Assembly (NCBI GenBank): GCA_016181175.1
Contig: JACOZV010000001.1
Span: forward strand, 75,778-139,777
Length of the DNA stretch: 64,000 nucleotides
DNA from: Candidatus Yanofskybacteria bacterium
Lineage (GTDB): Bacteria > Patescibacteriota > Minisyncoccia > 2-02-FULL-40-12 > IGHO2-01-FULL-4-A
Direction of reading: 5' to 3'
In this document: positions 39,170 to 60,716 of the stretch, in pieces
Layout of the letters: each line of letters opens with the position of its first letter
Numbering within the stretch: position 1 is the stretch's first letter
Made by a program: the position numbers and the translations under genes
Notes under the pieces: model-generated
Told to the model about the DNA's origin: nothing
The model's database searches: none
The model's input: only the letters and a program-made list of their open reading frames with translations

Positions 39170-39441
39170 TAAAATATGTTTTCTGATAAAAAACCAATAG
39201 AATATTGGATGCAAGAACTAATGAATCTAAAACATGAATGTGATCTGATGACAGAAAGGATAAGGAGTACCAGAGCGAACATTGAATATCTAATAGATTC
39301 AATCAAAGACAGAAGTCCAAAAGGAGTTGACCCAGAAAAATGGAAAAAGTTTTTAGCAGAATGGAATTCGTTTCAAATTGAATATAGTAACTTCCAATTT
39401 TAGTTTAAGTCGCCCTATTTTTAGGCAAGTTTTATTTGCCT
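39170..39441 (+). mobile_element. Stem-bounded IVS in the 23S domain V (helix-79-equivalent) region with a 75-aa ORF preceded by a perfect SD
   Basis: 14-bp stem GTAACCCTAGGAGG / CTTCCTAGGGTTAC encloses the insert; AGGAGGTAAAATATG gives SD spacing of 6 nt. Confidence 0.6.
39176..39403 (+). CDS. Small helical hypothetical protein encoded in the 23S IVS
   Basis: 75 aa (MFSDKKPIEYWMQELMNLKHECDLMTERIRS…); strong SD; no recognised family. Confidence 0.45.
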   Translation: MFSDKKPIEYWMQELMNLKHECDLMTERIRSTRANIEYLIDSIKDRSPKGVDPEKWKKFLAEWNSFQIEYSNFQF

Positions 39442-39498
39442 CTTCCTAGGGTTACATCAAGACAGTGCCTGGTGGGTAGTTTAACTGGGGCTGTTGCC

Positions 39499-39995
39499 TT
39501 AACGCGGTATTCGTTACACCGCATGGGGCCTACTGAAAGTAATTTCAGTATGCAAATTCGACTATATGCTGGAACCCCCGCGCATATCTGAATACTCTAC
39601 TTAGTAGCTGAGCTACTAAGTAAGTGAAAATTTTGGATCGATGCGGACAATCAGCAGGGAAGTTCTTCAATTAAATTCAGGACCCCTCAACGACTGTACG
39701 TCGAGTGCCGCGAAGCGGCAATGATACAGTCTGAACTGCATGGCGACATGCAGAGCTGGGCAGAAATGACCCGGCCGCCTATAAAATTTGGTTTTTTAAG
39801 GCCATGTTTTATGGGAAGGGTTTAGCGAATAATGCCTTATAGCACCGTTGAAGCTGTGCGATTGCACGGTTTGCGAGCAGTATAATTTTTCACTGCGAGT
39901 AAAATCCACAGATTCAACGGAGCGTAGCAACCTCGCTGGGGTTGCAAGCGGTGATAGAAGGTATTATTCGCTAAACCTGCAAAGTAACACAATTG
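39499..39995 (+). other. ORF-less structured insertion (intron or IVS) in 23S between GGGGCTGTTGCC and CCTAAAGAGTAACGGAGG
   Basis: About 497 nt with no ORF of 60 aa or more; contains GTCTGAACTGCATGGCGACATGCAGAG, near-identical to the 3' motif of the 37633..38949 intron, and a 20-bp internal stem GGTTTAGCGAATAATGCCTT / AAGGTATTATTCGCTAAACC. Confidence 0.5.
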
Positions 39996-40250
39996 CCTAA
40001 AGAGTAACGGAGGCGTTCATTAAGGTCGGCTAGCTGCGGATGGAAATCGCAGCGATAGTGTAAAGGCAAAAGCCGGCTTAACTGCGAGACGGATGTGTCG
40101 AGCAGGTGCGAAAGCAGGACTTAGTGAACCGACCGTTGGTCGTAGGACCGCGGAAGATCATCAGACAAAAGCTACTCCGGGGATAACAGGCTGGTACTGC
40201 CCGAGCGTCCCTAGCGACGGCAGTGTTCGGCACCTCGATGTCGGCTCGGC

Positions 40251-40769
40251 TTTTAATCGACTTTTTAACTGTTTGAGCCCGAGGAAAAGACATCAAAATA
40301 TAAATCACGGCGCAATAATATAGGAATATATTATTGACTGCTAACTTATATCGGTAAAACCCATTCGGTAAACTCGGGGTAATACCGAGAGAAGTTATTT
40401 GTTCAAATTTTTGGAAAAATAAAAAAGACCCTATTGGGTCATGTAAAATATGGCAAATGGTAAGGTAATGGCTAAAACAAATTGAAAGCGACAGAGACCA
40501 TCAGTATAGATTTTTTTGAAAGATCCAAGGGCTATAAGAGAGTTAAAAATCCAGAAAATAAGCATTAAAACCAGAGATATTAGCAGTTGTTGGGAGTTCA
40601 TTATTGCCTCCTAAATTAAATATAATTGATTATTAAATTATTGTCAATACCCAATTAATTTGACTCCAAAAATTTGAACAAATAACACTCGTAGAGACTA
40701 AATGTTAGCCATCCAATCTGCCAATCAGTGGAGGATGAAGTTATGGTCCAATGCACATAGTAATATGTG
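40251..40769 (+). other. ORF-less insertion in 23S after CACCTCGATGTCGGCTCGGC (E. coli ~2510 region); boundaries unresolved
   Basis: About 500 nt without an ORF; internal long-range pairing TTGTTCAAATTTTTGGAAAAAT / GACTCCAAAAATTTGAACAA resembles the module in the 37633..38949 intron; exon resumes near GAAACATGCGTGAGACAGGTTGGTCC. Confidence 0.4.
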
Positions 40770-40840
40770 GAAACATGCGTGAGACAGGTTGGTCCTTATC
40801 TGGTGCGGGCGTTGAAGTTTGAGGGGGGTTGTCCCTAGTA

Positions 40841-41614
40841 AGAAATTGCTACTTCACGCAGTAATGCGTGATGACAACTCGGCTAATAACGGTGAAATCT
40901 TATTATTTTTGTGTTCGTTGATAACTACAATTGTCGCGGTCCGACAATTATAGTACAATTTACTTGAGGACCAGAAATAATTAAGACGATACCGTGGGAA
41001 GTCAATCTAAAATTGATTTAGCATATATTGCAGGTTTTCTTGATGGTGACGGAAGCTTGATGTTACAAATCAAGAGACGCAAAGATGGAACCAAAAAGTT
41101 TCGCTTTATGTCTACAATTTGTTTTTATCAGGATAGTAACCACGAAGAATTTCTGCATTGGATAAAAAATATTCTTGGAATTGGTTATTTGACTCAAAGA
41201 GATGATGGCATGAGTGAACTAAGAATTAATGGATTTAAACAAGTTAAAGATATAATAAAAAACTTATTGCCATTTATTAAATTCAAGAAAAATCAAGCCA
41301 ATGCTATTTATGAAGCAACTAGCATGATGAGCAGTAAGATTCTAAGCCGTTTAACCAAGCAGGAATTGTTAAAAATCGTAGATTTAATGCTTATAATTCA
41401 AAAGCATAATTATAAATCTAGAAGCAAGAAAACCAAAAAAGAACTCATTCAATTATTAGATTTGACCCCGTAACGACTTGTCGAGTTTAGCTCGACGGAT
41501 GATTAGCGATGAGATTGCATCAATGGTTAATCATAACATGCCGATTCCCTGAATCCGCTTTTTGCGGGAGGGAAAAGATATAGTCTACACTTATAGTGAT
41601 ATAAGATTTTGTGA
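40841..41614 (+). mobile_element. Intron in the 23S sarcin-ricin loop (CCCTAGTA | CGAGAGGACCGG) carrying a LAGLIDADG homing-endonuclease gene
   Basis: Flanking exons reconstitute CCTAGTACGAGAGGACCGG exactly; 774-nt insert. Confidence 0.7.
40994..41473 (+). CDS. LAGLIDADG homing endonuclease, intron-encoded
   Basis: 159 aa; LAYIAGFLDGDGSL LAGLIDADG motif. Confidence 0.8.
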   Translation: MGSQSKIDLAYIAGFLDGDGSLMLQIKRRKDGTKKFRFMSTICFYQDSNHEEFLHWIKNILGIGYLTQRDDGMSELRINGFKQVKDIIKNLLPFIKFKKNQANAIYEATSMMSSKILSRLTKQELLKIVDLMLIIQKHNYKSRSKKTKKELIQLLDLTP

Positions 41615-42282
41615 CGAGAGGACCGGGATGAACGAACCTCTGGTCTACCAATTGTTTTGCCAAAAGCAGCGTTGGGTAGCTATGTTCGGTTCCGATAAGC
41701 GCTGAAAGAGATTTGAGGCGAGGCGAAGCAAAAACAACGAGGCATGGCTTGTGCCATGTCAAGGAGTTTTTGTGAAGCCGCAGCTCAAATATATAAATTG
41801 CAGCAGAAATGATTATTAAGTCGGAGGCACAAAGATTCGTGAGAGATTATCACGTTGATAGGGCGCAGGTGTAAGCGCGGTAACGCGTTCAGCCGAGCGC
41901 TACTAATAAATCATCAATTCCTTACAAGATTAAGTCCTTATGACCTTCGCGCTTAAACTGCGGAGCCCCCAAAATCTAAGGGGCTGGCCGCAGTTAAGCC
42001 GCAAGGATTTGCCCAATTTCTTCGTTAAGCACTCCGGTGCTCCCTCGCCATACCTCTAGTATGGCTCGGTTCACTCCTCGTGCTTGCCTCGAACTTGGCC
42101 AAACGCGAAGGTCAAAAATGCAAAAACACCCCTTTAACTATAAAAACTAAAAACCATTTGCTTGGTGGTTATACCGGAAGTGTCCCACCCGATCCTCCCG
42201 CCCATGTACACATAGGCGGGATTGCGATTTGCAGTTGTGCTCGTTACACTGTGCGCAAGCAAATCGGTAACATTCAGACTTG

Positions 42283-42458
42283 CCCCGCACCAAAATTAAA
42301 AATTAAAGCCAGCAAGTTGGTGACTATACTGTGAGTGCTCCACCTGTTCCCATTCCGAACACAGAAGTGAAATCTCGCAAGGCCCATGATAGTACAGTGC
42401 TTAGCATTGTGCGAAAGTAGGTAGTCGCCAGCTTGCTGGTTTTAATTTTGGTGCGGGG
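42283..42458. repeat. Family-B inverted repeat (CCCCGCACCAAAATTAAAA … TTTTAATTTTGGTGCGGGG) enclosing the 5S gene as an extended processing-stem/hairpin
   Basis: Left arm 42283-42307, right arm 42440-42458, 19 bp perfectly complementary. Confidence 0.6.
42308..42439 (+). rRNA. rrf: 5S rRNA with a 16-bp extended terminal helix
   Basis: GGTGACTATACTGTGAGTGCTCCACCTGTTCCCATTCCGAACACAGAAGTGAAATCTCGCAAGGCCCATGATAGTACAGTGCTTAGCATTGTGCGAAAGTAGGTAGTCGCCAGC; ends GCCAGCAAGTTGG / CCAGCTTGCTGG pair. Confidence 0.8.
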
Positions 42459-48078: not shown

Positions 48079-51000
48079 TTAAATCTCTTTTAACTCTATA
48101 TTCAACCCCAATCCTTTTATTTCTGACAGCAGCACCTTAAATGATTCTGGTAGGTGCGGAGCCCTGATTTCTTCTCCCTCAACTATTGCTTCGTATGTTT
48201 TTGCACGTCCTTGAACATCATCGGATTTGATGGTTAGCATTTCTTGCAATGTGTGAGCTGCTCCATAACCTTCAAGTGCCCAGACCTCCATTTCTCCAAA
48301 TCTTTGACCGCCAAATTGAGCTTTGCCGCCCAATGGCTGCTGTGTGATCAATGAATACGGGCCGATAGAACGCATGTGCATCTTGTCTTCTACCATGTGC
48401 ATCAGTTTCATGAAGTAGATAACCCCGACAGTGGTTTTCTGGTGGAATTTTTCTCCAGTGCGGCCATCATAAACGTATATTTTGCCATCTTCGGGCAATC
48501 CGGCTAATCTTAGCTCTTCCTTTATCATGCTTTCTGTTGCACCGCCCATCGCTGGAACCGCGGCTTTGTAGTCTAATTTAGATGCCGCCCAACCAAGATG
48601 GGTTTCTAAAACTTGGCCGATATTCATACGCGAGATTATACCAAGGGGGGATAAGATCATATCGACTGGATGTCCATCTGGTAGATAAGGCATGTCCTCT
48701 TCTGGTAGTATGGTGGATATAACGCCTTTATTTCCATGTCTTCCGGCCAACTTATCTCCGACTTGGACTTTTCTCATTTGTGCGACTGAAACCTGGACAG
48801 TTTTAATAACTCCCGCCTGAAGTTTGTCGCCCTGGTCTCTGGAAAATATTCTTACTCCAACGACGCGCCCAACCTTTCCATAATCTAGAGTTAAAGAGGT
48901 GTCTTTTACGTCTTGTGATTTTTCTCCGAATATTGCTCGCAGCAGTCTTTCTTCGGCGGTCAAATCGCTTTCACCTTTTGGTGAAATTTTACCGACTAAA
49001 ATATCTTGAGAACGTACTTCGGCTCCGATGCGCACAACACCATCCGGATCAAGGTTTTTAAGTTTTTCTTCAGAACGGTTAGGAATATCATAGGTAGTAA
49101 CTTCTGGTCCCAGCTTGGTTTCTCGTACATCTATGGAGTAATCTTCAATGTGGATAGAAGTGAACATGTCCTCCTTGACCAGCTTTTCCGAAAGTACTAC
49201 AGCGTCTTCAAAGTTGGATCCTTCAAATGACATGAAAGCAACGACTAAATTGCGTCCCAAAGCTAATTCCCCATTTCTAGTTGCTGGGCCATCTGCTAAA
49301 ACATCCCCCTTTTTTACCTTCTGGCCTGGTTTTACAATCGGGCGCTGGTTAATTGCAGTGAAGCTGTTTGATTTATTAAATTTCAATAAATTATAATTTA
49401 ATTCCCCTCCTTTATTGGTGCGCAATATAATTTTGGAGCTATCTATTTTTTCAATAGTGCCCGCGTCATCTGCGATTATCATCATGCCCGAATCTCTGGC
49501 AACTCTTTCTTCAAGTCCAGTACCAACGATCGGTTCTTCAGGAGATACAATTGGTACTGCTTGTCGTTGCATGTTGGAACCCATTAGGGCGCGGTTAGCA
49601 TCATCGTTCTCGAGAAACGGAATAAGAGACGTGGCAACAGAAAATGGCTGTTTGGTTGAAACATCGATGTAATCAATTCTGTCGGGTGTAACCAAGTCAG
49701 GTTCACCTTTAACCCTTGACGGTATTTTGGCTTCTGTAAATTTGCCGTTAGAGTCTAATTTGGCGCCAGCATGAGCAATGATAAACCGTTCTTCTTCGGT
49801 AGCATCAAAGTAATCAATTTGTTCTGTAACTTTGCCCTTAGACACCTTGCGATATGGCGAGAGTATGAAACCCAGTGGTGATACTTTGGCATGTAATGAT
49901 AGATGACCAACCAATCCGATGTTCGGACCTTCTGGAGTTTGAATTGGGCAAATTCTTCCATAATGTGAAGGGTGAACGTCGCGTACTTCAAAACTTGCTC
50001 TTTCACGAGTGAGTCCGCCGGGACCGAGTGCCGACAACCTACGTTTGTGTTCCAGCTCTGCAAGCGGGTTAACCTGGTCCATGAATTGAGAGAGCTGACC
50101 AGATGAAAAAAATTCTTTGACTGCAGCAACAAATGGTCGCGAATTTATAAGTTGGCCCGGAACAATAGTCGCTATATCCAAAGTGCTCATGCGGTCTTTT
50201 ATGATTCTTTCCATTCTGGCAAAGGACAGCCTTAATTTATCTTGTAATAATTCCCCGAGAGTTTTTACTCGACGGTTGCCAAGGTGGTCAATGTTATCAG
50301 GTTGGGCAGTGGGATCATTGTTCAAGTGTATCAGCTCCCTCATTATATCTATGATATCTTCCACCTTTAGCACCCTATTCTTCTCGTCTAGTGGATAGTT
50401 CTTTTGAAAACGTTGGTTCATTCGGTAACGTCCCACACGCGAAAGGTCATATCTGGAAAAGTTGAAAAACATGTTGTTGATCATCTGCCTGGCGTTGTCA
50501 ACGGTTGCAGGATCACCCGGCCGAATACGCTTATACATTTCTATTAAACCCTCATCCTGATTTGAGGCGGCGTCGGCAACTATAGTAGAAACGATGTATT
50601 TCATTTCTGGATCGGTATCTACATCTTCAAAAAGTTTTTTAATTTCTTCATCTTTACCTATACCAAAAGCTCTCAAAATAGAAGTTGCCGGAATTTTTCT
50701 TTTGCGGTCGATACGTACAGATATTACACCGCTTGATTCTGTTTCAAATTCAAGCCAGGCTCCCCGAGAGGGTATGATTTTTGCACTAAAAAACCGTTTG
50801 AAACGGCTTAGGCGTGATAACGAAAAGAATGCGCCAGGGCTTCGAATAAGCTGTGAAATCACAACTCTTTCAACCCCGTTAATTACAAAAGTGCCGCGCG
50901 GAGTCATGATTGGAAAATCAGCCAAATAAATTTCCTGCTCATCCAACTTGCCGGTTTTTTTGTTTTTTAGAGATATTTTTACTCGCAGAGGGGCTTCATA

Positions 51001-51231
51001 GGTGATATTTTTTTCTCTGGCAACTTGTTCGCTGAATTTCGGTTCTTCCAATTTAAAATCCAAAAATCTTAGTTCTAAATCTTTGTTGGTCCAGTCTTCA
51101 ATAGGAGAAATATCATTGAGAAGTTCTTTTAAGCCAACATTTAAAAACCATTGATAAGAATCAAGTTGAACCTGAACCAGGTTCGGTGGCTCAAAAGTAT
51201 CCGGGGCGTATTTTGATAGTATTTTGCGCAT
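48079..51231 (-). CDS. rpoB: DNA-directed RNA polymerase subunit beta (1050 aa, compact)
   Basis: Canonical rpoB blocks (…GPNIGLVGHLS…, …RHGNKGVIS…, …GQRFGEMEVWALE…). Confidence 0.95.
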   Translation of the reverse strand: MRKILSKYAPDTFEPPNLVQVQLDSYQWFLNVGLKELLNDISPIEDWTNKDLELRFLDFKLEEPKFSEQVAREKNITYEAPLRVKISLKNKKTGKLDEQEIYLADFPIMTPRGTFVINGVERVVISQLIRSPGAFFSLSRLSRFKRFFSAKIIPSRGAWLEFETESSGVISVRIDRKRKIPATSILRAFGIGKDEEIKKLFEDVDTDPEMKYIVSTIVADAASNQDEGLIEMYKRIRPGDPATVDNARQMINNMFFNFSRYDLSRVGRYRMNQRFQKNYPLDEKNRVLKVEDIIDIMRELIHLNNDPTAQPDNIDHLGNRRVKTLGELLQDKLRLSFARMERIIKDRMSTLDIATIVPGQLINSRPFVAAVKEFFSSGQLSQFMDQVNPLAELEHKRRLSALGPGGLTRERASFEVRDVHPSHYGRICPIQTPEGPNIGLVGHLSLHAKVSPLGFILSPYRKVSKGKVTEQIDYFDATEEERFIIAHAGAKLDSNGKFTEAKIPSRVKGEPDLVTPDRIDYIDVSTKQPFSVATSLIPFLENDDANRALMGSNMQRQAVPIVSPEEPIVGTGLEERVARDSGMMIIADDAGTIEKIDSSKIILRTNKGGELNYNLLKFNKSNSFTAINQRPIVKPGQKVKKGDVLADGPATRNGELALGRNLVVAFMSFEGSNFEDAVVLSEKLVKEDMFTSIHIEDYSIDVRETKLGPEVTTYDIPNRSEEKLKNLDPDGVVRIGAEVRSQDILVGKISPKGESDLTAEERLLRAIFGEKSQDVKDTSLTLDYGKVGRVVGVRIFSRDQGDKLQAGVIKTVQVSVAQMRKVQVGDKLAGRHGNKGVISTILPEEDMPYLPDGHPVDMILSPLGIISRMNIGQVLETHLGWAASKLDYKAAVPAMGGATESMIKEELRLAGLPEDGKIYVYDGRTGEKFHQKTTVGVIYFMKLMHMVEDKMHMRSIGPYSLITQQPLGGKAQFGGQRFGEMEVWALEGYGAAHTLQEMLTIKSDDVQGRAKTYEAIVEGEEIRAPHLPESFKVLLSEIKGLGLNIELKEI

Positions 51232-51351
51232 CCCGTACGAGACAGGAAATGCTTAAGCATTTCCGTTGATTATAATTTATCCCTTAGAAACAGCTTTGAT
51301 TTTATTTATCCGCCAGGTTATCCAAAAAAGTTCTTGCTGTCTCGTTCGGGA
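51232..51351 (-). promoter_or_regulatory. rpoB 5' leader element: CCTGTCTCGTACGGG-ATG start module plus GGAAATGCTTAAGCATTTCC hairpin, with an inverted partner (CTGTCTCGTTCGGGA) about 100 nt upstream
   Basis: Minus-strand mRNA reads GGAAATGCTTAAGCATTTCCTGTCTCGTACGGGATGCGCAAA…; the same module recurs at ssb, rplD and 56825. Confidence 0.55.
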
Positions 51352-51485
51352 CGCATAAGAACACAAAAACACCTCAACCCCGCTTAGCGGGGACGAATTA
51401 AAAACCTGCTCTCTTTAATTTTGCGAGATATCAGTTTCCACCCTTAGATATACAAATCTGGTAACTAGCAATTAGCAACTGGCGA

Positions 51486-51746
51486 CTAGATTTGTATACC
51501 CGCAACGAAAGCGGCGATTATTTTGTAAGAAGTGCTGTCTTGGCCGAGATCGCTATGTATTTTATAGCTTTTTAATGACTTGACGTCAATGTTATTCCTT
51601 TTCAGAAGCTTGTCAAGATTAGTTATCAACACATCACTAAGATCATGATAATACTTTGCAGTTTGTAAGTCAAGCATGCGACCGTCTTGCTGAAGTTCTA
51701 ATCTAAAATCCTCGGCACGTAAAACTATGATTAGGTCTAATTTCAT
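51486..51746 (-). CDS. Hypothetical small protein, possibly a TsaB/YeaZ-like N-terminal fragment
   Basis: 86 aa; weak resemblance only (…YKIHSDLGQDSTSYKIIAAFVAGI). Confidence 0.3.
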   Translation of the reverse strand: MKLDLIIVLRAEDFRLELQQDGRMLDLQTAKYYHDLSDVLITNLDKLLKRNNIDVKSLKSYKIHSDLGQDSTSYKIIAAFVAGIQI

Positions 51747-51821
51747 TGGTAAGACTTTATCAAAAAATTCCCGTGTTTACAAGATTTTGCTTTTTATTTT
51801 TAGTTTTTATACAATTAGATT

Positions 51822-54098
51822 GTGAAGCGCAAACTCAAAAGCCCGAAAAGAGTTTTAAAAAAGTCGGTAGAAGCCCAGGAGGTTTTGGGGTTGTCGCAGG
51901 AGACCAAGAATGGCATCTGGGGCGTGGCATCTTTGGGGCTGGCCATAGTTAGCACTTTGGCCTTTTTTCATAAGGCAGGCAGTGCGGGTGAACTTTTTGC
52001 GTCAGCCGCCAAGTCGTTGTTTGGTTGGGGCATATTTTTGGTGCCGCTTGGTCTGGCCATGCTTGGCGTGGCATTTCTTAAATCAATTTCGCGCAAGATA
52101 TATTCAAGCGCTATTATTGGCACAGTGCTTTTTGTCTTGGGGTTTTTGGCAGTCTTTCATGTTTTAGGCAATGGAGATTTGGCGGTTCGCATGCATCAAG
52201 GCGGATATCTTGGTTTAATTATCGGTTTTCCCATATTAAAAGCAGTCGGCTTTACTTCTTCATTCGTGGTATTGCTGATTTTGCTTTTTGTTTCGGTTTT
52301 AATAGCACTCAACATTCCCGTCCATAAACTAATATTGCGCAAGAACGAGGGCACAGAAGAAAACGAAGAGGAACAAGTTTTGAAAGATAATGTGGTAATA
52401 AAAAGAGGAACTCAAATTGTAGATATAAAAGCGGAAGAAGCGGCCGCAGTCGCAAAGGCCAAGGCTCAAGCATCTGCCCCCAAGGCGCAAACAGTAGCCA
52501 AGCACGACGAGGAAGAAAGGGAATTTATCATCAAAACATCGCGATCAGGCAAGTGGATCCTACCGCCTATTGAAATTTTGAATTCGGACAAAGACCAGCC
52601 GCGTTCCGGTGACATAAACGCCAACGTTTCCATTATTAAACGCACTCTTGCCAACTTCGGTATTGATGTTGAGATGGGCGAAGTTTCTATCGGTCCGGCG
52701 GTGACCCAGTTTACCTTGCGTCCGGCAGTTGGTGTTAAACTTGCCAAGATTACCACCTTGAGAAATGACCTCGAGCTTGCTTTAGCGGCGCATCCGATTC
52801 GTATTGAAGCGCCGATTCCGGGCAAGGCGTTAGTCGGGGTTGAGGTGCCGAATAAAAAATCGGCAATAGTGGGGCTGCGCGACATGTTTGAGTCGGAAGA
52901 ATTCAAGAAAAGCAAATATTTTTTACCGATTGCGGTTGGGCGTGATGTTGCCGGTTTTCCTGTTTTTGCGGGACTCGAGAAGATGCCACACCTGTTGATT
53001 GCGGGAGCCACGGGTACCGGCAAGTCCGTTTCCATTAACACCCTTTTGCTCTCGCTTTTATACAAACATTCGCCGGACACTTTGAAATTCATAATGGTTG
53101 ACCCTAAACGCGTTGAACTCTCCCTTTATAATGGTATTCCTCATCTTATTACACCCGTTATTGTCGATTCTAAAAAAGTTGTAAACGCTTTACGCTGGGC
53201 TGTCAGAGAAATGGAAAAGCGCTATGAGCGGCTGTCCATGTCTGGTTCGCGCGATATATTTTCTTTCAACATAAGACAAGCCGCGGCTAAAGAAGATCTA
53301 ATGCCGGTTATTGTTATAGTCATTGATGAATTGGCTGATTTGATGGCGGCTCATGGTCGCGATGTTGAAGCGGCGATTGTCCGACTTGCCCAAATGGCTC
53401 GTGCTGTTGGCATACATTTGATCGTCTCAACTCAACGGCCTTCGGTTGAGGTAATAACCGGTTTAATCAAGGCCAATATTACGTCCCGCATCGGTTTGCA
53501 AGTTGCTTCACAAGTAGACTCACGTACTATTTTGGACATGTCTGGCGCGGAAAAATTGTTGGGTAACGGCGATATGCTATATCTTGCCGGCGACGTGTCA
53601 AAACCGCGTCGAATTCAGGGTTCATTTGTGAGCGAGAAAGAAGTAAAGGACGTGGTTAAGTTTATCAAGCAACAAGCGGAACAACTTGACGAGGAAATCG
53701 GGGAAGAAAAAGAGGAAGAACTGAAACTTGATCCCGATGAGGTCGTGACAAGCACGGCTGGCGTTGATGGCGGCAATATGGGCGATGATCTGTTTAATGA
53801 CGCCAAAGAAGTGGTGGCTCAAGCCGGTAAGGCCTCGGCATCTTTACTCCAGCGTCGGCTTCGCGTAGGGTACGCACGAGCGGCCCGACTTTTGGATCTG
53901 CTTGAAGAAAAAGGAATTATTGGTCCGGGCGAAGGCGCCAAACCAAGGGAAGTATATATTGGCCCTTCGGTGGGCTCAGGACTAGGAAAGGGCGGCGGCG
54001 TGCCTCCGACACAAGACAACTTTGTAGATGATGGTTCGGTGGCCGAAGTCGTATCGTCTGATTCAAAGCTAGACGATAAAATTGCGGTTGAAGAATAG
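51822..54098 (+). CDS. ftsK: DNA translocase FtsK/SpoIIIE
   Basis: N-terminal TM helices; Walker A GATGTGKS; FtsK motor blocks; C-terminal gamma (winged-helix) region. Confidence 0.9.
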   Translation: MKRKLKSPKRVLKKSVEAQEVLGLSQETKNGIWGVASLGLAIVSTLAFFHKAGSAGELFASAAKSLFGWGIFLVPLGLAMLGVAFLKSISRKIYSSAIIGTVLFVLGFLAVFHVLGNGDLAVRMHQGGYLGLIIGFPILKAVGFTSSFVVLLILLFVSVLIALNIPVHKLILRKNEGTEENEEEQVLKDNVVIKRGTQIVDIKAEEAAAVAKAKAQASAPKAQTVAKHDEEEREFIIKTSRSGKWILPPIEILNSDKDQPRSGDINANVSIIKRTLANFGIDVEMGEVSIGPAVTQFTLRPAVGVKLAKITTLRNDLELALAAHPIRIEAPIPGKALVGVEVPNKKSAIVGLRDMFESEEFKKSKYFLPIAVGRDVAGFPVFAGLEKMPHLLIAGATGTGKSVSINTLLLSLLYKHSPDTLKFIMVDPKRVELSLYNGIPHLITPVIVDSKKVVNALRWAVREMEKRYERLSMSGSRDIFSFNIRQAAAKEDLMPVIVIVIDELADLMAAHGRDVEAAIVRLAQMARAVGIHLIVSTQRPSVEVITGLIKANITSRIGLQVASQVDSRTILDMSGAEKLLGNGDMLYLAGDVSKPRRIQGSFVSEKEVKDVVKFIKQQAEQLDEEIGEEKEEELKLDPDEVVTSTAGVDGGNMGDDLFNDAKEVVAQAGKASASLLQRRLRVGYARAARLLDLLEEKGIIGPGEGAKPREVYIGPSVGSGLGKGGGVPPTQDNFVDDGSVAEVVSSDSKLDDKIAVEE

Positions 54099-54141
54099 CG
54101 TTAAATAAATACATCGTTGGGAGGCGATAGTATTTGTAGTT

Positions 54142-55176
54142 ATGGTAAAAGAAAAAGGTAAAAAGGAGGAAAAAACAGCAAGGACAGATGTTGCGAATCG
54201 CGGTGTTGATTTAGCCATTAAAGAGATACAGGAAAAATACGGCGATGGCTCAATTATGAAGTTGGGTGATGCACGCAAGGTTGATGTGGATGTGATACCT
54301 ACAGGTTCGATTTCGCTTGATCTTGCGCTTGGTGTCGGTGGTATACCGCGAGGCCGCGTTACTGAGGTCTACGGGCCCGAATCAAGCGGAAAAACTACAC
54401 TGGCCCTACATCTTGTTTCTGAAGTTCAGAAAATGGGTGGTGTGGCCGCTTATGTTGATGCCGAGCACGCGCTGGACCCGGACTATGCCAAAAAAATTGG
54501 TGTTAGGGTTAATGATCTTTTGATTTCCCAGCCCGATACCGGTGAACAGGCTCTTGAAATAGTCGAAACATTGGTGCGTTCGGGTGGTATACAGCTTGTC
54601 GTGGTGGATTCAGTCGCAGCGCTTACGCCGCGGGCCGAGATTGAAGGCGAAATGGACCAACAGCATATGGGTTTGCAGGCGCGGTTGATGTCTCACGCTT
54701 TGCGTAAACTGACGGGCATAGTATCTAAAACCAATACGGCGGTTTTATTTATAAATCAAATCAGACAAAAGATCGGAATTATGTTTGGCAATCCCGAGAC
54801 AACGCCAGGTGGTTTGGCGTTGAAATTCTATTCTTCTGTAAGAGTTGAAATCCGCCGCGCGGCGCAAATACAGTCAGCCGAGAAAATTATTGGCAATCGC
54901 GTTAAGGTTAAAATTGTAAAAAACAAAGTTGCCGCGCCGTTCAGGGTTGCCGAGTTCGACATACTTTATAATGAAGGTATCTCCCGCCATGCGGATCTGG
55001 TAAATACCGGCGTAGTGCTTGGCGTGGTTGCAAAAAGTGGTGCGTGGTACAACTTCGGCGAACAACGTCTTGGCCAGGGCATTGATGGCGCCCGACTGTT
55101 CCTGAAGGAAAACCCCAAAGTAGAAAAGGAAATTCTCGGAGCCGTTAAAAAGGCCGCGGCGGTCAAAGAAGCGTAG
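54142..55176 (+). CDS. recA: Recombinase RecA
   Basis: GPESSGKTT Walker A, canonical RecA blocks throughout. Confidence 0.95.
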
Positions 55177-55191
55177 TTCCATCAACAAAAT

Positions 55192-55226
55192 AAAATCTCC
55201 ACCGATCGGTGGAGATTTTATTTTTT
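55192..55226. terminator. Bidirectional rho-independent terminator between recA (+) and rpsR (-)
   Basis: AAAATCTCCACCGATCGGTGGAGATTTT followed by ATTTTTT. Confidence 0.8.
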
Positions 55227-55430
55227 AAGAGTTTGTAATTTTGTATATGGCATGAGTCCCATATATCTGGCATTTTTAACTGCGTTGGCTACCATGCGCT
55301 GGTGCTTCTGGCACAAGCCGGTGCGGACCGAAGAAGAAATCTTAAACTGGCCCGAAACAAATTTGCGGAGTATATCCGTGTTTTTATAATCAACATAATT
55401 AATTTTTTCCTGACAAGCGGAACAAACCAT
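55218..55430 (-). CDS. rpsR: 30S ribosomal protein S18
   Basis: 70 aa; …YKNTDILRKFVSGQFKI…RMVANAVKNARYMGLMPY. Confidence 0.9.
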   Translation of the reverse strand: MVCSACQEKINYVDYKNTDILRKFVSGQFKISSSVRTGLCQKHQRMVANAVKNARYMGLMPYTKLQTLKK

Positions 55431-55440
55431 GCTTGGGTGA

Positions 55441-55540
55441 ATTTTTAATTTCCAATTTTTAATTTTTAAATAAATCTTAATGTTTTAATTTTTAAACATT
55501 AGAAATTATTTATAAAATTATAAAATTAAAAATTATAAAA
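55441..55540. repeat. AT-rich palindromic hairpin repeat (family A), inverted copy between ssb and rpsR
   Basis: Reverse complement is about 95 percent identical to 37306..37410. Confidence 0.75.
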
Positions 55541-56060
55541 TCTCTTTTTCTTCAATATCGCTATCAGAAATTATCGGGTCACTGGTAATGGGTGCATCCT
55601 CATTTATAACAGGTATGTCTTCTTCTTTCACTCCATTAGAAATTGCGCCCGCGCTTTGCGCGCCCGAAGGGCCTTTGGGCGGGCTATTTCTAACGGGGTT
55701 CACCTCATTGTTATATGAGCCCGTTCCCATTGCCTTGGGTCCCAACTGCATGCCATCAGCAACAATCTCCGTTCGATATCTTTTTACTCCATCTTGGCCT
55801 TGCCAAGTTCTTGTTTGGAGACGCCCCTCAAAAAGCGCCAACTGTCCCTTGCGCAAGTATTTTGAAATTACGTCGGCAAGTCCACCCCAAGCTGTTACGG
55901 TGTGAAATTCAACCTGTTCTTGTTTTTCACCTGTTGCGCGGTTGTTCCAGACACGATTTGTAGCCAATCTAACAGTGACAACCATTTGTCCCGATTGTGT
56001 TGTCCTTGATTCCGGGTCAGCCGCTAACCTGCCGATTAAAAATACTTTGTTCAGATTCAT
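55533..56060 (-). CDS. ssb: Single-stranded DNA-binding protein; true start MNLNKV…, since the upstream in-frame extension is encoded by the repeat module
   Basis: OB-fold MNLNKVFLIGRLAADPESRTTQSGQMVVTVRLATNRVWNN…, Gly/Pro-rich linker, acidic C-terminal tail DSDIEEKEIL. Confidence 0.9.
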   Translation of the reverse strand: MNLNKVFLIGRLAADPESRTTQSGQMVVTVRLATNRVWNNRATGEKQEQVEFHTVTAWGGLADVISKYLRKGQLALFEGRLQTRTWQGQDGVKRYRTEIVADGMQLGPKAMGTGSYNNEVNPVRNSPPKGPSGAQSAGAISNGVKEEDIPVINEDAPITSDPIISDSDIEEKEIL

Positions 56061-56106
56061 CCCGTACGAGACAGGAAATGATTTATCTGAGTAAATCATT
56101 TCCGTG
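56061..56106 (-). promoter_or_regulatory. ssb translation-initiation module: GGAAATGATTTA-loop-TAAATCATTTCC hairpin plus CCTGTCTCGTACGGG-ATG
   Basis: Minus-strand RNA reads CACGGAAATGATTTACTCAGATAAATCATTTCCTGTCTCGTACGGGATGAATCTG. Confidence 0.55.
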
Positions 56107-56134
56107 CCCATTTAATCTACTTTATTAATCCCGC

Positions 56135-56638
56135 CTAGATAACCATCGTAACCATTTCTTGTTCAAGTTGCTGTTTTTCCGCTTCGGTTTTTTCTTTGGC
56201 TGGTTTTTTGGCTATTTCCGCTGTGGCCGGTTCATGTGTTTTTATTCTTGGCCTGGATCGGTATTGTCCCAAAATTCTTAATTCCTTACCCTCGTCCGGC
56301 TTTTTAAGAAGCAGATATCTCAATATGCCGCCCTGCAATTTTATTTGAGAATTTATTTTTTCTATTGTTTCAGTCGGTGCTGAAAAATCCAATATGCCAA
56401 AGTTGGCATATTGTTTGTTTTTTATCATATATGACAGATGCACGCGTTGGGGAACTTTAGAAGTTAAAATTGAACCGCCGGCCTGTGTTACTAAGGCAGA
56501 AAGTTCCTGTGTTTGCGCCTTAATATCAATCTCTTCGAGATCAGGACCTAAGTGATAAGCAAGCTCATAGGTTTTCGGTTGTATATCAGCTTCCGTCATC
56601 TTGGGAAAAAGGTTAGCAGAATTTATCGTTAGAGTCAA
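56135..56638 (-). CDS. rpsF: 30S ribosomal protein S6 (rpsF-ssb-rpsR operon)
   Basis: …KTYELAYHLGPDLEE…QRVHLSYMIKNKQYANFGILDF… S6 fold; operon context; start codon uncertain (M1 or M14). Confidence 0.75.
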   Translation of the reverse strand: MTLTINSANLFPKMTEADIQPKTYELAYHLGPDLEEIDIKAQTQELSALVTQAGGSILTSKVPQRVHLSYMIKNKQYANFGILDFSAPTETIEKINSQIKLQGGILRYLLLKKPDEGKELRILGQYRSRPRIKTHEPATAEIAKKPAKEKTEAEKQQLEQEMVTMVI

Positions 56639-56692
56639 ATTTTTGCGGGGGTTGAATTAGTTTTGCTGGTTTGATATAAATAAAAGTAATGA

Positions 56693-56824
56693 ATCCCGAA
56701 CGAGACAGCCCTTGTCAACGGCATGGAAAGGTTGCGGCGGCTATCTAATTGGTGATTTATAAAGTTAATTTAAATAGACACGGAAATGATTTACTCAGAT
56801 AAAACATTTCCTGTCTCGTACGGG
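56693..56824 (+). promoter_or_regulatory. Leader of gene 56825: inverted partner ATCCCGAACGAGACAGC (56693-56709), hairpin GGAAATGATTTACTCAGATAAAACATTTCC, then CCTGTCTCGTACGGG-ATG
   Basis: Same module architecture as at rpoB, ssb and rplD. Confidence 0.5.
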
Positions 56825-57181
56825 ATGAATTTTAATCGATTAAAAGAATTAGTTGGTAAATTGGGCGGGCTTTTGGTGTTGGACGGTGATAAGCCTGAGT
56901 TGGTGGTATTGACATACAAAAAATATCAAGAAATTGAAACCGGAGAGGAAGTGGCCATTTCTAATCCTAATCGGAATGGAGCAGACGAAGGAAGTATTTT
57001 GAGCGGCGAAGGCGGCGAAGATGGTAGTGACGACGACAGAAAAACTCTTGATCAGTTAAACCAAGAGATACTTGCATTAAAAGAAGAGATAAGACAAAAA
57101 GAGGAGGCTGAATTGATTGGAAATGGACAAGTGACGGAACCGATAGCCGAAATTGTTGACCCCGCACCTTTTTTGGACTAG
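56825..57181 (+). CDS. Hypothetical protein with a Phd/YefM-antitoxin-like N-terminal fold and an acidic coiled-coil C-terminus
   Basis: MNFNRLKELVGKLGGLLVLDGDKPELVVLTYKKYQEIE resembles Phd/YefM; start set at the module ATG rather than the upstream in-frame extension MIYSDKTFPVSYG. Confidence 0.45.
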   Translation: MNFNRLKELVGKLGGLLVLDGDKPELVVLTYKKYQEIETGEEVAISNPNRNGADEGSILSGEGGEDGSDDDRKTLDQLNQEILALKEEIRQKEEAELIGNGQVTEPIAEIVDPAPFLD

Positions 57182-57227
57182 CGCTCCGCGCCAAAATTTA
57201 AAAAAGTTGTCCACAAAAGGTGCGGGG
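57160..57227 (+). repeat. Family-B hairpin (CCCCGCACCTTTTTT … AAAAGGTGCGGGG) overlapping the stop of the upstream gene and abutting the tuf promoter -35
   Basis: 13-bp inverted-repeat termini identical to the 23S insert at 35152..35273; interior begins TTGGACTAGCGC (compare TTGACACTAGTGC in the 23S copy). Confidence 0.6.
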
Positions 57228-57256
57228 TTGACTTTGATTAGGCCTTGTTCTATAAT
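57228..57256 (+). promoter_or_regulatory. Consensus sigma70 promoter upstream of tuf
   Basis: TTGACT-17 nt-TATAAT (perfect -35 and -10 hexamers). Confidence 0.7.
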
Positions 57257-57369
57257 GGTTTTACTTGTCTTTTTTTAATAATAAGAAGGTTACAGGTAGC
57301 GGTTCCAGGTGTCAGTAAAGTTAATTGACTGAAAACTGCAAACTCTTCTCTGTAAACTAAAGAACGCAA

Positions 57370-58572
57370 ATGGCAGGAAAATTTGAGAGATCAAAGCCGC
57401 ACTTGAATGTCGGCACAATTGGTCACGTTGACCATGGTAAAACCACCTTGACGGCGGCTATTTTACACACGCTAGATCTTTTTAAAGATGAGGGCTATGG
57501 TGCTCGCGTTGAAAAAGTTGATCAGATTGATAATGCCCCTGAAGAAAAAGCTCGCGGTATTACTATCGCATTGCATCATTCAGAGTATGAAACACCGAAA
57601 CGTCACTATGCTCACGTTGATGCTCCTGGTCACCAGGATTATATCAAGAACATGATTACGGGCGCTGCCCAAATGGACGGTGCGGTTTTAGTTGTGGCTG
57701 CAACAGACGGTCCGATGCCGCAAACCCGTGAACACATTTTGCTTGCTAGACAAGTTGGCGTGCCTTACGTAATGGTCTTTTTAAATAAGGTAGATCAGGT
57801 TGACGATCCAGAAATGCTTGATCTGGTTGAAGCTGAAATACGTGAGCTTCTGAACAAATATCAATTTCCCGGAGATAAAACGCCCATAGTCAGGGGTTCG
57901 GCTCTGAAGGCTCTTGATGCCAAGAGCAAAGACGATCCGTCTCTCAAATCAATCAAGGAACTTATTGATACGCTTGATTCATATATTCCTGATCCAGTTA
58001 GAGAAATAGAAAAACCGTTCCTGATGCCTGTGGAAGACATCTTTTCTATAGAAGGTCGTGGCACTGTTGTTACTGGTCGTATTGAGCGTGGAAAAGTTAA
58101 GGTTAACGAAGAAATTGAAGTGGTTGGTATTACTCCTACTCAGAAAACCGTAGTAACTGGTATAGAAATGTTCAACAAACAGTTAGATGAAGGAATGGCA
58201 GGGGATAATGCTGGCATACTGTTAAGGGGTCTTAAAAAAGAAGATGTGTCCCGTGGCCAGGTACTCTCTAAACCAGGTTCAATAACCCCGCATACAGAAT
58301 TTGATGCGGAGGTTTATGTTTTGTCTAAAGAAGAAGGTGGCAGGCATACGCCGTTTTTCAAGGGTTACAAACCGCAATTTTACTTTAGAACAACCGATGT
58401 TACAGGGGATGTTACTTTGCCTGAGGGAACAGAAATGGTTATGCCTGGAGATACAGTTAACTTGAAAATTAAACTTATTGCCCCGATTGCTATGGAAGAA
58501 AAGCAACGCTTTGCTATTAGAGAAGGGGGAAAGACAGTAGGTGCAGGCGTTGTCACAAGAGTTATAGTATAA
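57370..58572 (+). CDS. tuf: Elongation factor Tu
   Basis: [23 protein letters not shown]-motifs; 400 aa. Confidence 0.97.
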
Positions 58573-58574
58573 AA

Positions 58575-58618
58575 ATAACCACGCCCTTGAGCTTATGGCT
58601 CAAGGGCGTGGTTATTTG
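58575..58618 (+). terminator. Hairpin terminator/attenuator between tuf and rpsJ
   Basis: ATAACCACGCCCTTGAGC-TTATG-GCTCAAGGGCGTGGTTAT followed by TTG. Confidence 0.65.
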
Positions 58619-58640
58619 AAGTTCTTTTTGTACCATTAAA

Positions 58641-58979
58641 ATGCCAAGCAAAAAAGACAAAACACCAGAAGTAGCCCAACAACGAATTAGAATCAAATTG
58701 AGGGCTTATGATAATAAGATTATTGATAAGTCTGCCAAGCAGATCGTTGAAACGATTGAAAGAAACGGTGGCAAGGTTATTGGCCCAGTGCCATTACCGA
58801 CAGAGATCCGCAAGTATACAGTCAATCGCTCCGCTTTTATAGATAAAAATTCCCGTGAACAATTTGAAATGCGTGTTCACAAAAGATTAATAGATATTTT
58901 CGGTCCCAATTCCAAAATTATAGATTCCCTAATGAATCTTAACCTACCAGCCGGTGTAGATATTGAATTGAAAATGTAA
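58641..58979 (+). CDS. rpsJ: 30S ribosomal protein S10
   Basis: …[27 protein letters not shown]…[10 protein letters not shown]…. Confidence 0.95.
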
Positions 58980-59147
58980 TTTTCAATTCAATATCTACAC
59001 CGCAACGAAGGGGTCGGGAAACAATGATGGTTTCCCGATGAGGAAGTTGGAAACCGCTTGGTTTCCAAGAGTGGGAGCGGTGCCCTAGCGAGCGAAGCGA
59101 GCGGTGGAGGGGCCCACGATGGAATAGATATTGAACTTAAGATGTAG
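58953..59147 (+). other. Perfect 22-bp hairpin spanning the rpsJ stop codon, plus an inserted structured segment of about 140 nt ending in a duplicate of the last 27 nt of rpsJ
   Basis: GGTGTAGATATTGAATTGAAAA-TGTAA-TTTTCAATTCAATATCTACACC (58953-59001); duplicate GGAATAGATATTGAACTTAAGATGTAG (59121-59147) encodes GIDIELKM*, matching the rpsJ C-terminus GVDIELKM*. Confidence 0.55.
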
Positions 59148-59326
59148 TTAAGACATAATCGGATTCAATGGTGCCAGATGTCGTTATCGTTTATCGATGC
59201 CGACATTTGTTACTTTCTGTGAAGTAACAATATAACTTAATGGTTTTAATTTTTAATAAAACCTAATTCGCACAAACTGATTTAGCTTTTGGTTATTTTG
59301 CCCAGCTAGATCTGGGTTTTTGTTTT

Positions 59327-59926
59327 ATGTCATTTATCCTTGGTAAAAAAATTGGAATGACCCAAATTTTTCAGGAAGATGGAACCGTAACTCCCGTAAC
59401 TTTGGTTGAAGCCGGTCCAGTTACTGTTACGCAGGTAAGGGTTAAAGACAAAGATGGCTACGAAGCGGTGCAGGTCGGTTACGGTAATGACAAAAAACTT
59501 AATAAACCCAAGGGCGGACACTTAAAAGATCTCAAACCGCTCAAAGTATTAAGGGAAACAAAAGTACTGAATGATAAAAAAAGAGGTGACGAAATAGATG
59601 TTTCCGCATTTGGTATTGGTGACAAAGTAAAGGTAAGCGGTTTCTCTAAGGCCAGAGGATTTCAGGGTGTGGTCAAGAGACACGGTTTCCATGGAATGCC
59701 TGCCAGTCATGGCCATCATCACGTTTTACGCCATGGCGGTTCCATCGGCCAACGTTTTCCCCAGCATACTCTCAAGGGTATGCGCATGGCCGGACGCATG
59801 GGCGGCAAGAGAATAACAACGAGAGGATTAAAAATTTTAAATATTGATAAAGAAAATAATCTTTTGGCAATAAAGGGAGCAATTCCCGGCCGCCGAGGAA
59901 CATTATTAGAAATAACAAAAATATGA
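59327..59926 (+). CDS. rplC: 50S ribosomal protein L3
   Basis: 199 aa; canonical L3 blocks. Confidence 0.95.
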   Translation: MSFILGKKIGMTQIFQEDGTVTPVTLVEAGPVTVTQVRVKDKDGYEAVQVGYGNDKKLNKPKGGHLKDLKPLKVLRETKVLNDKKRGDEIDVSAFGIGDKVKVSGFSKARGFQGVVKRHGFHGMPASHGHHHVLRHGGSIGQRFPQHTLKGMRMAGRMGGKRITTRGLKILNIDKENNLLAIKGAIPGRRGTLLEITKI

Positions 59927-60050
59927 ATCCCGTACGAGACAGCTAGGTCTAAAGTTAAAGGTAAAAATAATAAAATTAGCACTAACTGTTTTGGCGGGAT
60001 AACTTAAAAGATATGGATTAGGTTTATAACCTAATCCTGTCTCGTACGGG
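59927..60050 (+). promoter_or_regulatory. rplC-rplD intercistronic element: ATCCCGTACGAGACAGC … hairpin GGATTAGGTTTATAACCTAATCC plus CCTGTCTCGTACGGG-ATG(rplD)
   Basis: 17-bp inverted termini (59927-59943 / 60036-60050) flank a 92-nt spacer; the module abuts the rplD start. Confidence 0.55.
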
Positions 60051-60716
60051 ATGAAAATAGAATTATACAATCAAGCTGGTGAAGTTGTTGGTACGGTTGA
60101 TCTGTCCGATAAGGTTTTTGGTTTAACTATGAATGGGGAGTTGGTAAAGCAAGTTGTTGATGCGCAGGTAGCCAATTCAAGACAAGTGATTGCTCATACA
60201 AAAGACCGCAGTGAAGTGCGAGGTGGCGGTCGCAAGCCGTGGCGGCAAAAGGGAACAGGCCGAGCCAGGCATGCTTCTATCAGATCGCCGATTTGGAAGG
60301 GCGGGGGTGTTGCGTTCGGTCCCACCAAAGAAAGGAATTTCGAGAAAAAAATAAATAAAAAAATGAAACGCAGGGCATTGTTTATGGCTTTATCAAGCAA
60401 GGCCAAAGACAAAGCATTATTATTATTAGATGACCTTAAATTAGAAACTCCAAAAACCAAACTAGGAGCCAATGTAATCAAAACCTTATCTTCCAAGATG
60501 GAAGGATATCGGGCATCCAAGCAAAAGATGGATTCGATTTTATTGATAACTTCTGATCAAAATCAAACCATTGTCCGCACTTTTAATAATTTACCGTTTG
60601 TTGGCATATTACCAGCCAAAAGTTTGAACGTTAGAGATGTCTTGAGTAAGAAGTATCTGATTTTGTTACAAAATGCGGTGCCGGTAATTGAGAAAACATT
60701 CAGAATTTCTAATTAA
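60051..60716 (+). CDS. rplD: 50S ribosomal protein L4
   Basis: 221 aa; …RGGGRKPWRQKGTGRARHASIRSPIWKGGGVAFGP…. Confidence 0.95.
   Translation: MKIELYNQAGEVVGTVDLSDKVFGLTMNGELVKQVVDAQVANSRQVIAHTKDRSEVRGGGRKPWRQKGTGRARHASIRSPIWKGGGVAFGPTKERNFEKKINKKMKRRALFMALSSKAKDKALLLLDDLKLETPKTKLGANVIKTLSSKMEGYRASKQKMDSILLITSDQNQTIVRTFNNLPFVGILPAKSLNVRDVLSKKYLILLQNAVPVIEKTFRISN

Follow-up and report, generated by a model that had tools for sequence, protein, structure and literature searches.

Probable miniature transposable elements at start codons in Candidatus Yanofskybacteria, with a candidate GIY-YIG parent

Four genes behind one sequence

Why do four unrelated genes begin immediately after the same 15 nucleotides? 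The question is raised by a 64,000-nt stretch of a Candidatus Yanofskybacteria genome (assembly GCA_016181175.1, contig JACOZV010000001.1, positions 75,778 to 139,777; hereafter the window), in which a first-pass annotation had attributed such a common start to rpoB, ssb, rplD and a gene starting at 56825. Exact copies of the 15-mer CCTGTCTCGTACGGG are indeed found at 51232-51246(-), 56061-56075(-), 56810-56824(+) and 60036-60050(+), and all four are followed directly by an ATG. Pfam confirms the identity of rpoB (48079-51231, -), ssb (55533-56060, -; SSB domain) and rplD (60051-60716, +), and gives no match for the fourth gene (56825-57181, +; hereafter gene 56825). The genes located 5′ of ssb and rplD are rpsF (S6) and rplC (Pfam), respectively. 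We conclude, with a probability of about 0.8, that the four start modules are the right ends of insertions of 121-132 bp, which resemble MITEs (miniature inverted-repeat transposable elements) and derive from a cassette encoding a GIY-YIG protein.

The surroundings of the module were also largely as first described. A local hairpin is present at each of the four starts (51245-51264, 56074-56103, 56782-56811 and 60015-60037). Inverted copies of CCTGTCTCGTACGGG, with one or two mismatches, lie upstream of the three starts for which they had been reported (51336-51350(+), 56695-56709(-) and 59929-59943(-)), but the ssb locus, listed without such a partner, also keeps a decayed left half at 56135-56189. 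Altogether, the window contains seven matches to CCTGTCTCGTACGGG, versus 0.07 expected, and none of 100 shuffled sequences attains this number. The list of open reading frames (ORFs) holds two N-terminally extended versions, 55533-56111(-) and 56786-57181(+), as expected from the spurious extensions that the module had been said to create. Finally, the four genes do lack a classical Shine-Dalgarno (SD) motif, which is no special trait because the genome is almost SD-free: among the 41 window ORFs that reach 110 aa, an SD-like motif no more than 18 nt from the ATG is present in only 3, and leaders are A/T-rich.

Ends and target-site duplication

Read on the mRNA strand, every copy has the layout ...ATGNN / TCCCG(A/T)ACGAGACAG...hairpin-CC TGTCTCGTACGGG / ATGNN..., in which the host ORF opens with the same five bases that lie 5′ of the element, and NN depends on the host. 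The terminal inverted repeats (TIRs), TCCCG(A/T)ACGAGACAG and CTGTCTCGTACGGGA, are complementary at 14-15 of their 15 positions. The earlier suggestion of a MITE with TIRs at gene starts is thus retained, with repeats of 15 bp instead of 17 bp. In the window, the flanks are ATGCG/ATGCG at rpoB and ATGAA/ATGAA at both rplD and gene 56825. Because NN covaries with the second codon of the host gene, we take the flanking direct repeat to be a target-site duplication (TSD). Two other readings of the flanks were rejected: site-specific recombination on a fixed core, as NN follows the host gene, and an extended inverted repeat including ATGAA, as the flanks are direct rather than inverted.

The sample was enlarged in two ways, and the related contigs and loci obtained are designated below by L numbers. 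A scan of a genome collection with the 15-mer returned mostly chance matches (about 1,000 were expected); among the matches listed, the only relevant ones are four loci from Yanofskybacteria and Saccharibacteria (L028, L063, L064 and L068), and those in L057 and L139 look like chance. A gapped-pattern search of metagenomes, with a pattern ending in ATG, yielded 23 further short copies on 20 contigs. Closest relatives of the elements are found in Yanofskybacteria metagenome-assembled genomes. Among the 27 usable short copies (metagenome copies plus the four genome-scan loci), 19 show a perfect 5-nt direct repeat, with ATGNN on both sides. Duplicated flanks differ between copies (ATGCG, ATGGA, ATGAG or ATGAA), and NN other than AA is also seen in L068 (GA/GA), L129 (AG/AG) and a full-length copy, L149 (AG/AG). 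The hosts in L128 and L136 have GTG at the left end of the element and ATG at the right end, and unoccupied orthologues of the L136 host (in L138, and at 2836(-) in the window) start GTGAGTGTT, with GTG. In addition, the flanks are TTAA/TTAA in one and TTGA/TTGA in the other of two copies that do not abut a gene start.

The simplest reading of these junctions is that the element itself runs from TCCCG to CGGGA and that the duplication covers about 4 bp, (A/G)/TGNN and usually TGAA. As the element ends in A, the ATG would be rebuilt directly before the host ORF, and the old start codon remains at the left end of the element. The proposed donation of start sites is thereby sharpened: the terminal A completes the ATG, the duplication is TGNN, and the parent is a GIY-YIG gene of about 280 bp (see below).

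Empty sites are available at three places, L121, L138 and 2836(-) in the window, the genomes concerned being moderately related (65-68% protein identity). Between rplC and rplD, L121 (ribosomal protein L4 65% identical) has an ordinary 18-nt spacer without element, and the orthologous ssb start in L122 carries an intact element. On sequence criteria, the short copies have the attributes of MITEs: they are smaller than about 300 bp, end in TIRs, have a TSD that varies and are dispersed in multiple copies, with empty sites at orthologous positions. In L132 (1808-1960), two elements are arranged in tandem, and the ATGAA that the first one rebuilt is where the second one starts. Such an arrangement would be expected if, in every element, the left junction could itself serve as a target.

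Copies in the window

The window contains six copies of 51-132 bp, and several contigs hold two to four, among them L121 and L127 with four each. Relic ORFs running from the old ATG are only 7-19 codons long in the window copies (4-44 codons in MITEs as a whole). The copy before rpoB (51231-51351, -; 121 bp) has its left repeat, TCCCGAACGAGACAG, at 51337-51351, a subterminal hairpin at 51245-51264 and its right repeat, CTGTCTCGTACGGGA, at 51231-51245, with the final A being the A of the rpoB ATG; the direct repeat ATGCG occupies 51352-51356 and 51227-51231. The copy before gene 56825 (56694-56825, +; 132 bp) consists of a left repeat at 56694-56708, a hairpin at 56782-56811 and a right repeat at 56811-56825, between ATGAA at 56689-56693 and 56825-56829, and a relic short ORF, MNPERDSPCQRHGKVAAAI, begins at the old ATG (56689). 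The start of gene 56825 is occupied by different element subfamilies in the window and in L121.

The copy between rplC and rplD (59928-60051, +; 124 bp) has repeats at 59928-59942 and 60037-60051, a hairpin at 60015-60037, and the direct repeat ATGAA at 59923-59927 and 60051-60055. The right duplicate is the rplD start, and the left one still holds the rplC stop (TGA, 59924-59926, within ATGA). An ancestral 4-nt ATGA overlap between the rplC stop and the rplD start has thus been split by the insertion.

The copy before ssb (56060-56189, -; about 130 bp) aligns over its full length to the type-A MITEs of L122, L028 and L064. Its right repeat (56060-56074) and hairpin (56074-56103) are intact, and its left half is decayed, with a relic of the left repeat, AACCGAAGCGGAAAAACAGC, at 56170-56189. 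Part of this decayed half, 56135-56189(-), now provides rpsF with its stop and its last ~18 codons; within the 154-aa ORF, the S6 domain covers residues 10-99. The 3′ end of rpsF is apparently mobile-element sequence exapted as a coding tail.

The two remaining copies are more divergent. An SLTG-type copy of 75 bp, TCCCATTAGAGGT...ACCTCTAACGGGA (1961-2035, -), abuts the ATG of an hsp20 gene (1524-1961, -) and has no clear duplication left. The orthologous hsp20 start in L138 is occupied by a 121-bp SRTG-type copy (813-934), which belongs to another subfamily than that of the window. The presence of different subfamilies at the same starts points to recurrent insertion there, or to replacement. 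The sixth copy (34852-34902, +; 51 bp), made of TCCCGGTTAGAGC, a hairpin (GATTGCCAC..GTGGCAATC) and ACCTCTAACGGGA, is located about 100 nt upstream of the 23S rRNA gene and not at a start codon.

A GIY-YIG cassette with the same ends

In L063 (1482-1766), the two repeats recur at a distance of 276 bp and flank a single ORF, MNPERDS...RFLSRTG*, which starts at the duplicated host ATG and whose TGA overlaps the rebuilt one. This ORF is a GIY-YIG domain (Pfam PF01541, E=4e-12). The repeats are part of the coding sequence, as the left one encodes the N-terminus, M-N-P-E/V-R-D, and the right one the C-terminus and stop, F-L-S-R/L-T-G-TGA. A search for similar proteins matched 1,926 clusters at E<=1e-5, and those with a named source are all from Patescibacteria; among 120 clusters listed, MNP(E/V)RD...RFLS(R/L)TG termini predominate. 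The proteins are typically 93-95 aa long (85 aa if called from an internal Met). NCBIfam has no family for this ORF, and a GIY-YIG profile search of viral contigs gave no match.

Seven distinct full-length loci were identified (L063, L141, L145, L146, L149, L156 and L157), the 103 contigs of P0078 being one locus sampled repeatedly and not many insertions. For example, the cassette lies before a sigma-70 gene in L145, before Sua5 in L146 and between two glycosyltransferase genes in L149. All seven loci show the duplication (ATGAA, ATGAG or ATGAT) and a 4-nt overlap with the next gene.

The closest structural relatives in PDB are 1ZG2 (UPF0213, E=1.4e-8) and Slx1 (7CQ3, rmsd 2.2 A over 73 columns). 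In the AlphaFold model (pLDDT 85), the first six residues, encoded by the repeat, are disordered, and a long basic helix forms the C-terminal end. No variation is seen at Y14, Y24, G26, R34 and H38, and almost none at E70; these positions are the ones expected in a GIY-YIG core, with roles inferred from the family. The dN/dS ratio of the ORF is 0.07-0.09, with synonymous sites near saturation, which indicates that the protein is maintained by selection and that the repeats are conserved beyond coding needs. Judged by its sequence, the 93-95-aa ORF thus qualifies as a functional member of the GIY-YIG superfamily, and is a predicted nuclease. The hypothesis of a homing endonuclease gene was rejected, as there are more than 20 unrelated host genes and both TIRs and TSDs are present.

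Covariation of repeats and hairpin

The outer parts of the repeats, TCCCG/CGGGA, are fixed. Inner positions differ between subfamilies on both sides and yet stay complementary, with at least five nucleotide variants (...AACGAGACAG, ...TTAGAGAT, ...TTAGAGCYAG, ...TTACATCCAG and ...TACAAAGTAGC). The two termini of the GIY-YIG protein covary accordingly, with 26 ERD-SRT, 29 VRD-SLT, 6 VRA-ALT, 3 LEL-TLT and 1 VTS-DVT combinations. Mismatches are too few for an asymmetry between G-U and A-C pairs to tell an RNA stem from a DNA stem; the recurrent mismatch is A-A at position 6.

The hairpin just inside the right repeat varies as well (GGAAATG, GGATTAGG, GGATTATG, GGAGATG, GGTAATGCCC and others), with pairing kept: 98.6% of hairpin alignment cells are paired, versus 68.5% after shuffling and 25-53% when the alignment is slid, and double changes occur in six of the eight hairpin pairs. 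In full-length genes, the hairpin is at the same place, within the codons for KRYLKNRLKRF. These patterns of substitution indicate that repeats and hairpin are most probably functional parts of the element.

In most MITE subfamilies, the terminal motif also recurs inside the element, as a third copy, (G)CGGGAT(A/T)A, that precedes the right end by 35-45 nt (59993-60003 and 56120-56130(-) in the window; L028, L064, L122, L130, L131, L136 and L138). In type-A MITEs, the left repeat and this motif resemble a nested mini-element of about 62 nt (for example in L064, TCCCGTATGAGACAGC...GGCTGTCTAAGCGGGA). The third motif may reflect a composite origin or provide an extra protein-binding site.

Position at start codons

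In the sets that are unbiased with respect to gene position, five of the six window copies, seven of the seven full-length copies and four of the six copies found secondarily in flanks are located at a gene start. The hosts are unrelated: they include glycosyltransferase, sigma-70, Sua5, serine hydroxymethyltransferase (SHMT), hsp20, HisKA_7TM and membrane-protein genes, as well as ribosomal-protein genes (by reading of translations) in L121, L028 and L137. There are 710 TGAA sites in the window, of which 51 are intergenic and 6 at gene starts. Preference for TGAA combined with loss of intragenic insertions would thus predict only ~10% of copies at starts. The bias might be produced by TGAA preference together with either real targeting or element-level selection, the latter because the element lacks its own start codon, so that only copies behind one would be expressed. 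MITE subfamilies with common interiors occupy different genes and occur in different genomes, which favours some real targeting.

Expression of the interrupted genes

How could essential genes be expressed behind such insertions? In predicted RNA folds (-46 to -56 kcal/mol, z-scores -3.4 to -5.4), the repeats pair over 15-17 bp, the AU of the AUG lies within this stem and the hairpin stacks on top; the AUG is thus predicted to be buried, as the first-pass annotation had anticipated when it suggested that the inverted copy sequesters the initiation region. These structured leaders are very unlike the open A/U-rich leaders that are normal in this genome. The hypothesis of an element-borne promoter was unsupported, as a sigma-70 scan detected no promoter within any element, and "terminator-like" matches in the elements proved to be just the hairpins, without a proper T-tract.

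Host expression could be kept by translational coupling, an explanation to which we would give a little less than an even chance. In full-length copies, the nuclease ORF would be translated from the original signals of the host gene up to its stop in the ATGA overlap, where termination-reinitiation, for which such an overlap is standard, would hand ribosomes on. In MITEs, the stem would be melted, and the rebuilt AUG exposed, by ribosomes that had either initiated at the old ATG or terminated on rplC, one base ahead of the left arm. One MITE subfamily of 123-126 nt has an open frame of 43-44 codons, which begins at the old host ATG and ends in ...LSRTG-TGA, the TGA overlapping the rebuilt ATG. 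We observed it in L121 (7770-7903 and 8731-8864), L124, L134, L127, L126 and L133, with a conserved peptide tail, F.KQINYK.RIMFLENIILSRTG. This frame may either be kept for translational coupling or encode a micro-protein.

Alternatively, the same mobile element could leave its host genes expressed because RNase III cuts the repeat stem, leaving an mRNA with a very short unstructured leader. The predicted duplex of 15-17 bp, perfect or near-perfect and with a coaxial hairpin, would suit such processing, an SD-independent ribosome could use a short leader in this SD-less genome, and a second GIY-YIG cassette, in the 23S rRNA gene of the window (see below), is also closed by an inverted repeat, of 24 nt. 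There is precedent, since RNase III processes both Neisseria Correia repeats and rRNA intervening sequences. Cleavage of the latter is mentioned by Tsurumaki et al. (2024, PMC11270868). However, the open frame of 43-44 codons, with its TGA over the ATG, suggests that ribosomes translate across the element rather than that it is cleaved, and the ATGA overlap is kept in full-length copies. We therefore regard this route as rather unlikely.

Mobilisation

The MITEs have a same-ended partner, the ~280-bp GIY-YIG element, whose protein is not a known transposase. As this is its only ORF, the element is not an insertion sequence in the ISfinder sense. We tentatively propose, at slightly worse than even odds, that the ~280-bp unit transposes autonomously, with its 94-aa GIY-YIG nuclease as its own transposase. 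The nuclease would mobilise full-length and miniature copies alike, recognising the paired ends and the hairpin as a structure, in an Slx1-like manner. The element would insert preferentially at start codons and hijack the initiation signals of the host for its own ORF, and the rebuilt ATG would hand translation back to the host gene. The four start modules of the window would then be miniature derivatives located before essential genes.

Several points weigh against this set of proposals. Eight of the 27 duplications are imperfect at one position or offset by 1 nt. The 23 metagenome copies are biased toward starts by the ATG at the end of the search pattern. We found no presence/absence polymorphism at the strain level: three of three contigs with an identical L4 protein carry the insert, and an exact-protein look-up of the window SSB, for a strain-level empty site, returned no record. 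What MITEs share with the GIY-YIG ORF is limited to ~25 nt at the left end and ~45 nt at the right, and their interiors show no homology to it. The coupling model is built on predicted folding and ORF layout, and it is unexplained how a DNA enzyme would find start codons. Lastly, we know of no GIY-YIG-driven cut-and-paste element with TIRs and TSD, none was found in the literature examined, and a trans-acting transposase encoded elsewhere in these genomes is a possible alternative mobiliser.

Under this last hypothesis, the short copies would be ordinary MITEs moved in trans by an unseen conventional transposase (for example DDE, IS5- or IS1380-like), and the GIY-YIG gene a passenger or addiction-type cargo. 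TIRs together with a duplication of 4-5 bp are what classically marks DDE transposition, we know of no GIY-YIG transposase, and the DNA inspected amounted to 64 kb from this genome plus ~325 kb of related sequence. Yet within these 325 kb, pairs of repeats are only ~50-135 or 275-280 bp apart and never 1-3 kb, and no transposase was found among the ten larger window ORFs scanned. In addition, the repeats are embedded in the GIY-YIG coding sequence family-wide and covary with the protein subfamily, and the strong purifying selection on the ORF is unexpected for a passive passenger. A conventional transposase acting in trans is thus improbable.

The first-pass suggestion that the hairpin and UGUCUCGUACGGG form a dedicated cis-regulatory mRNA leader, that is a lineage-specific initiation or control signal of highly expressed genes switched by the upstream inverted copy, is very improbable: several hosts are highly expressed (rpoB, ssb, rplD and the ribosomal-protein genes in L121, L028 and L137), the predicted stem buries the AUG, the hairpin covaries and an SD-less genome makes an alternative signal conceivable, but two findings largely refute the idea, the lack of the element from the orthologous rplD leader in L121 and the flanking duplications that covary with host codon 2, and it is further opposed by the unrelated hosts listed above (from glycosyltransferase to membrane-protein genes), by ends that also enclose a protein-coding gene, by copies located elsewhere than at a start codon and by the absence of any Rfam match on the elements (gathering threshold or E<=1).

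Comparison with known systems

The short copies are reminiscent of the Correia repeat-enclosed elements (CREE) of Neisseria and of enterobacterial repetitive intergenic consensus sequences (ERIC, or intergenic repeat units, IRU), which are also non-coding elements of ~100-150 bp with TIRs, a short target duplication and many copies, and which are also gene-adjacent and co-transcribed, with repeats that can form a long RNA stem affecting expression. The present elements are distinct in that their partner with matching ends encodes a GIY-YIG nuclease instead of a DDE transposase, that they are inserted overwhelmingly at start codons and in a single orientation, that their last base completes the ATG, and that only one of their ends has a covarying subterminal hairpin. 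Such a conserved covarying subterminal hairpin is found, together with very small non-autonomous derivatives and strand-specific asymmetry, in IS200/IS605 with the palindrome-associated transposable elements (PATEs), and in the system formed by repetitive extragenic palindromes (REP) and their associated tyrosine transposases (RAYT). These, however, use HUH/Y1 transposases, have no TIRs and no duplication, and insert 3′ of a tetra- or pentanucleotide, not at starts.

The full-length cassette can be compared with free-standing GIY-YIG homing genes (T4 seg, I-TevI-type), which are also small selfish nuclease genes located between host genes and using host expression signals. Homing endonuclease genes, however, propagate through the repair of double-strand breaks into the empty cognate allele at a single locus, lack TIRs and TSD and have a separate DNA-binding domain, whereas the present element has a bare catalytic domain of ~80 aa plus one helix, many unrelated loci, TIRs and a TSD. 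The best matches in sequence and fold are UPF0213 (E. coli YhbQ / B. halodurans BH0048, 1ZG2) and Slx1, but the latter requires its partner Slx4 and carries a RING domain. To our knowledge, neither mobility nor terminal repeats nor a start-codon context has been described for UPF0213 proteins.

No published description of a start-codon GIY-YIG/MITE element was found in the literature searched, the coverage of which is incomplete. The combination of MITE and selfish nuclease gene, which we did not find described, has a substantial chance of being a new class of transposon. If the GIY-YIG unit is autonomous, it would represent a mechanistically new class among prokaryotic transposons and would probably be smaller than any other autonomous one; a bare GIY-YIG domain with inverted repeats and TSD would add a nuclease family to the few enzymes that move prokaryotic DNA, and would suggest a function for the uncharacterised UPF0213/YhbQ proteins. 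If the mobile-element reading holds, genomes of the candidate phyla radiation (CPR), usually called poor in mobile DNA, hold an abundant family of ultra-small elements, occupying start codons of core genes (rpoB, ssb, ribosomal proteins and sigma-70) without killing them. A self-contained insertion module of 280 bp, with defined ends and a 4-bp target, might also serve as a genetic tool. The elements would explain spurious N-terminal extensions and many mini-ORFs misannotated as "excinuclease ABC subunit C" or GIY-YIG, and they would offer a natural experiment on initiation behind a structured GC-rich leader in an SD-less bacterium.

Other features of the window and unrelated matches

A second, unrelated GIY-YIG cassette is present in the 23S rRNA gene of the window (35811-36127, +). 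It contains an 88-aa ORF (35846-36109; Pfam, E=6e-18) and is closed by a 24-nt inverted repeat (35811-35834 / 36104-36127, 92% complementary), which in the rRNA would form an extension helix, like that of an intervening sequence. Tsurumaki et al. (2024, PMC11270868) reported GIY-YIG ORFs in non-intron insertion sequences of CPR rRNA genes, and describe neither inverted repeats at their ends nor duplications nor derived MITEs. Such insertions share with the start-codon elements the radiation and the protein superfamily, but the one in the window is of another subfamily (36% identity), with another repeat and an rRNA host. This second cassette suggests that GIY-YIG cassettes closed by inverted repeats are a general CPR theme. 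The heavily interrupted rRNA operon extends over 35000-42433, with a match to the large-subunit rRNA model at 35000-37750, a group I intron at 39472-39753 and 5S rRNA at 42316-42433; no 16S rRNA gene is present within the window.

The 15-mer also occurs in Streptomyces and other Actinobacteria (L004, L026 and L032), in the opposite orientation and within a conserved 5′ leader, CCCGTACGAGACAGGAG-N7-ATG, upstream of an SD motif and ATG; these leaders are probably unrelated to the element. Finally, a perfect 20-bp hairpin 3′ of tuf (58573-58617) and a GC-rich hairpin 3′ of gene 56825 (57160-57227) are ordinary terminator-like structures outside the element family.

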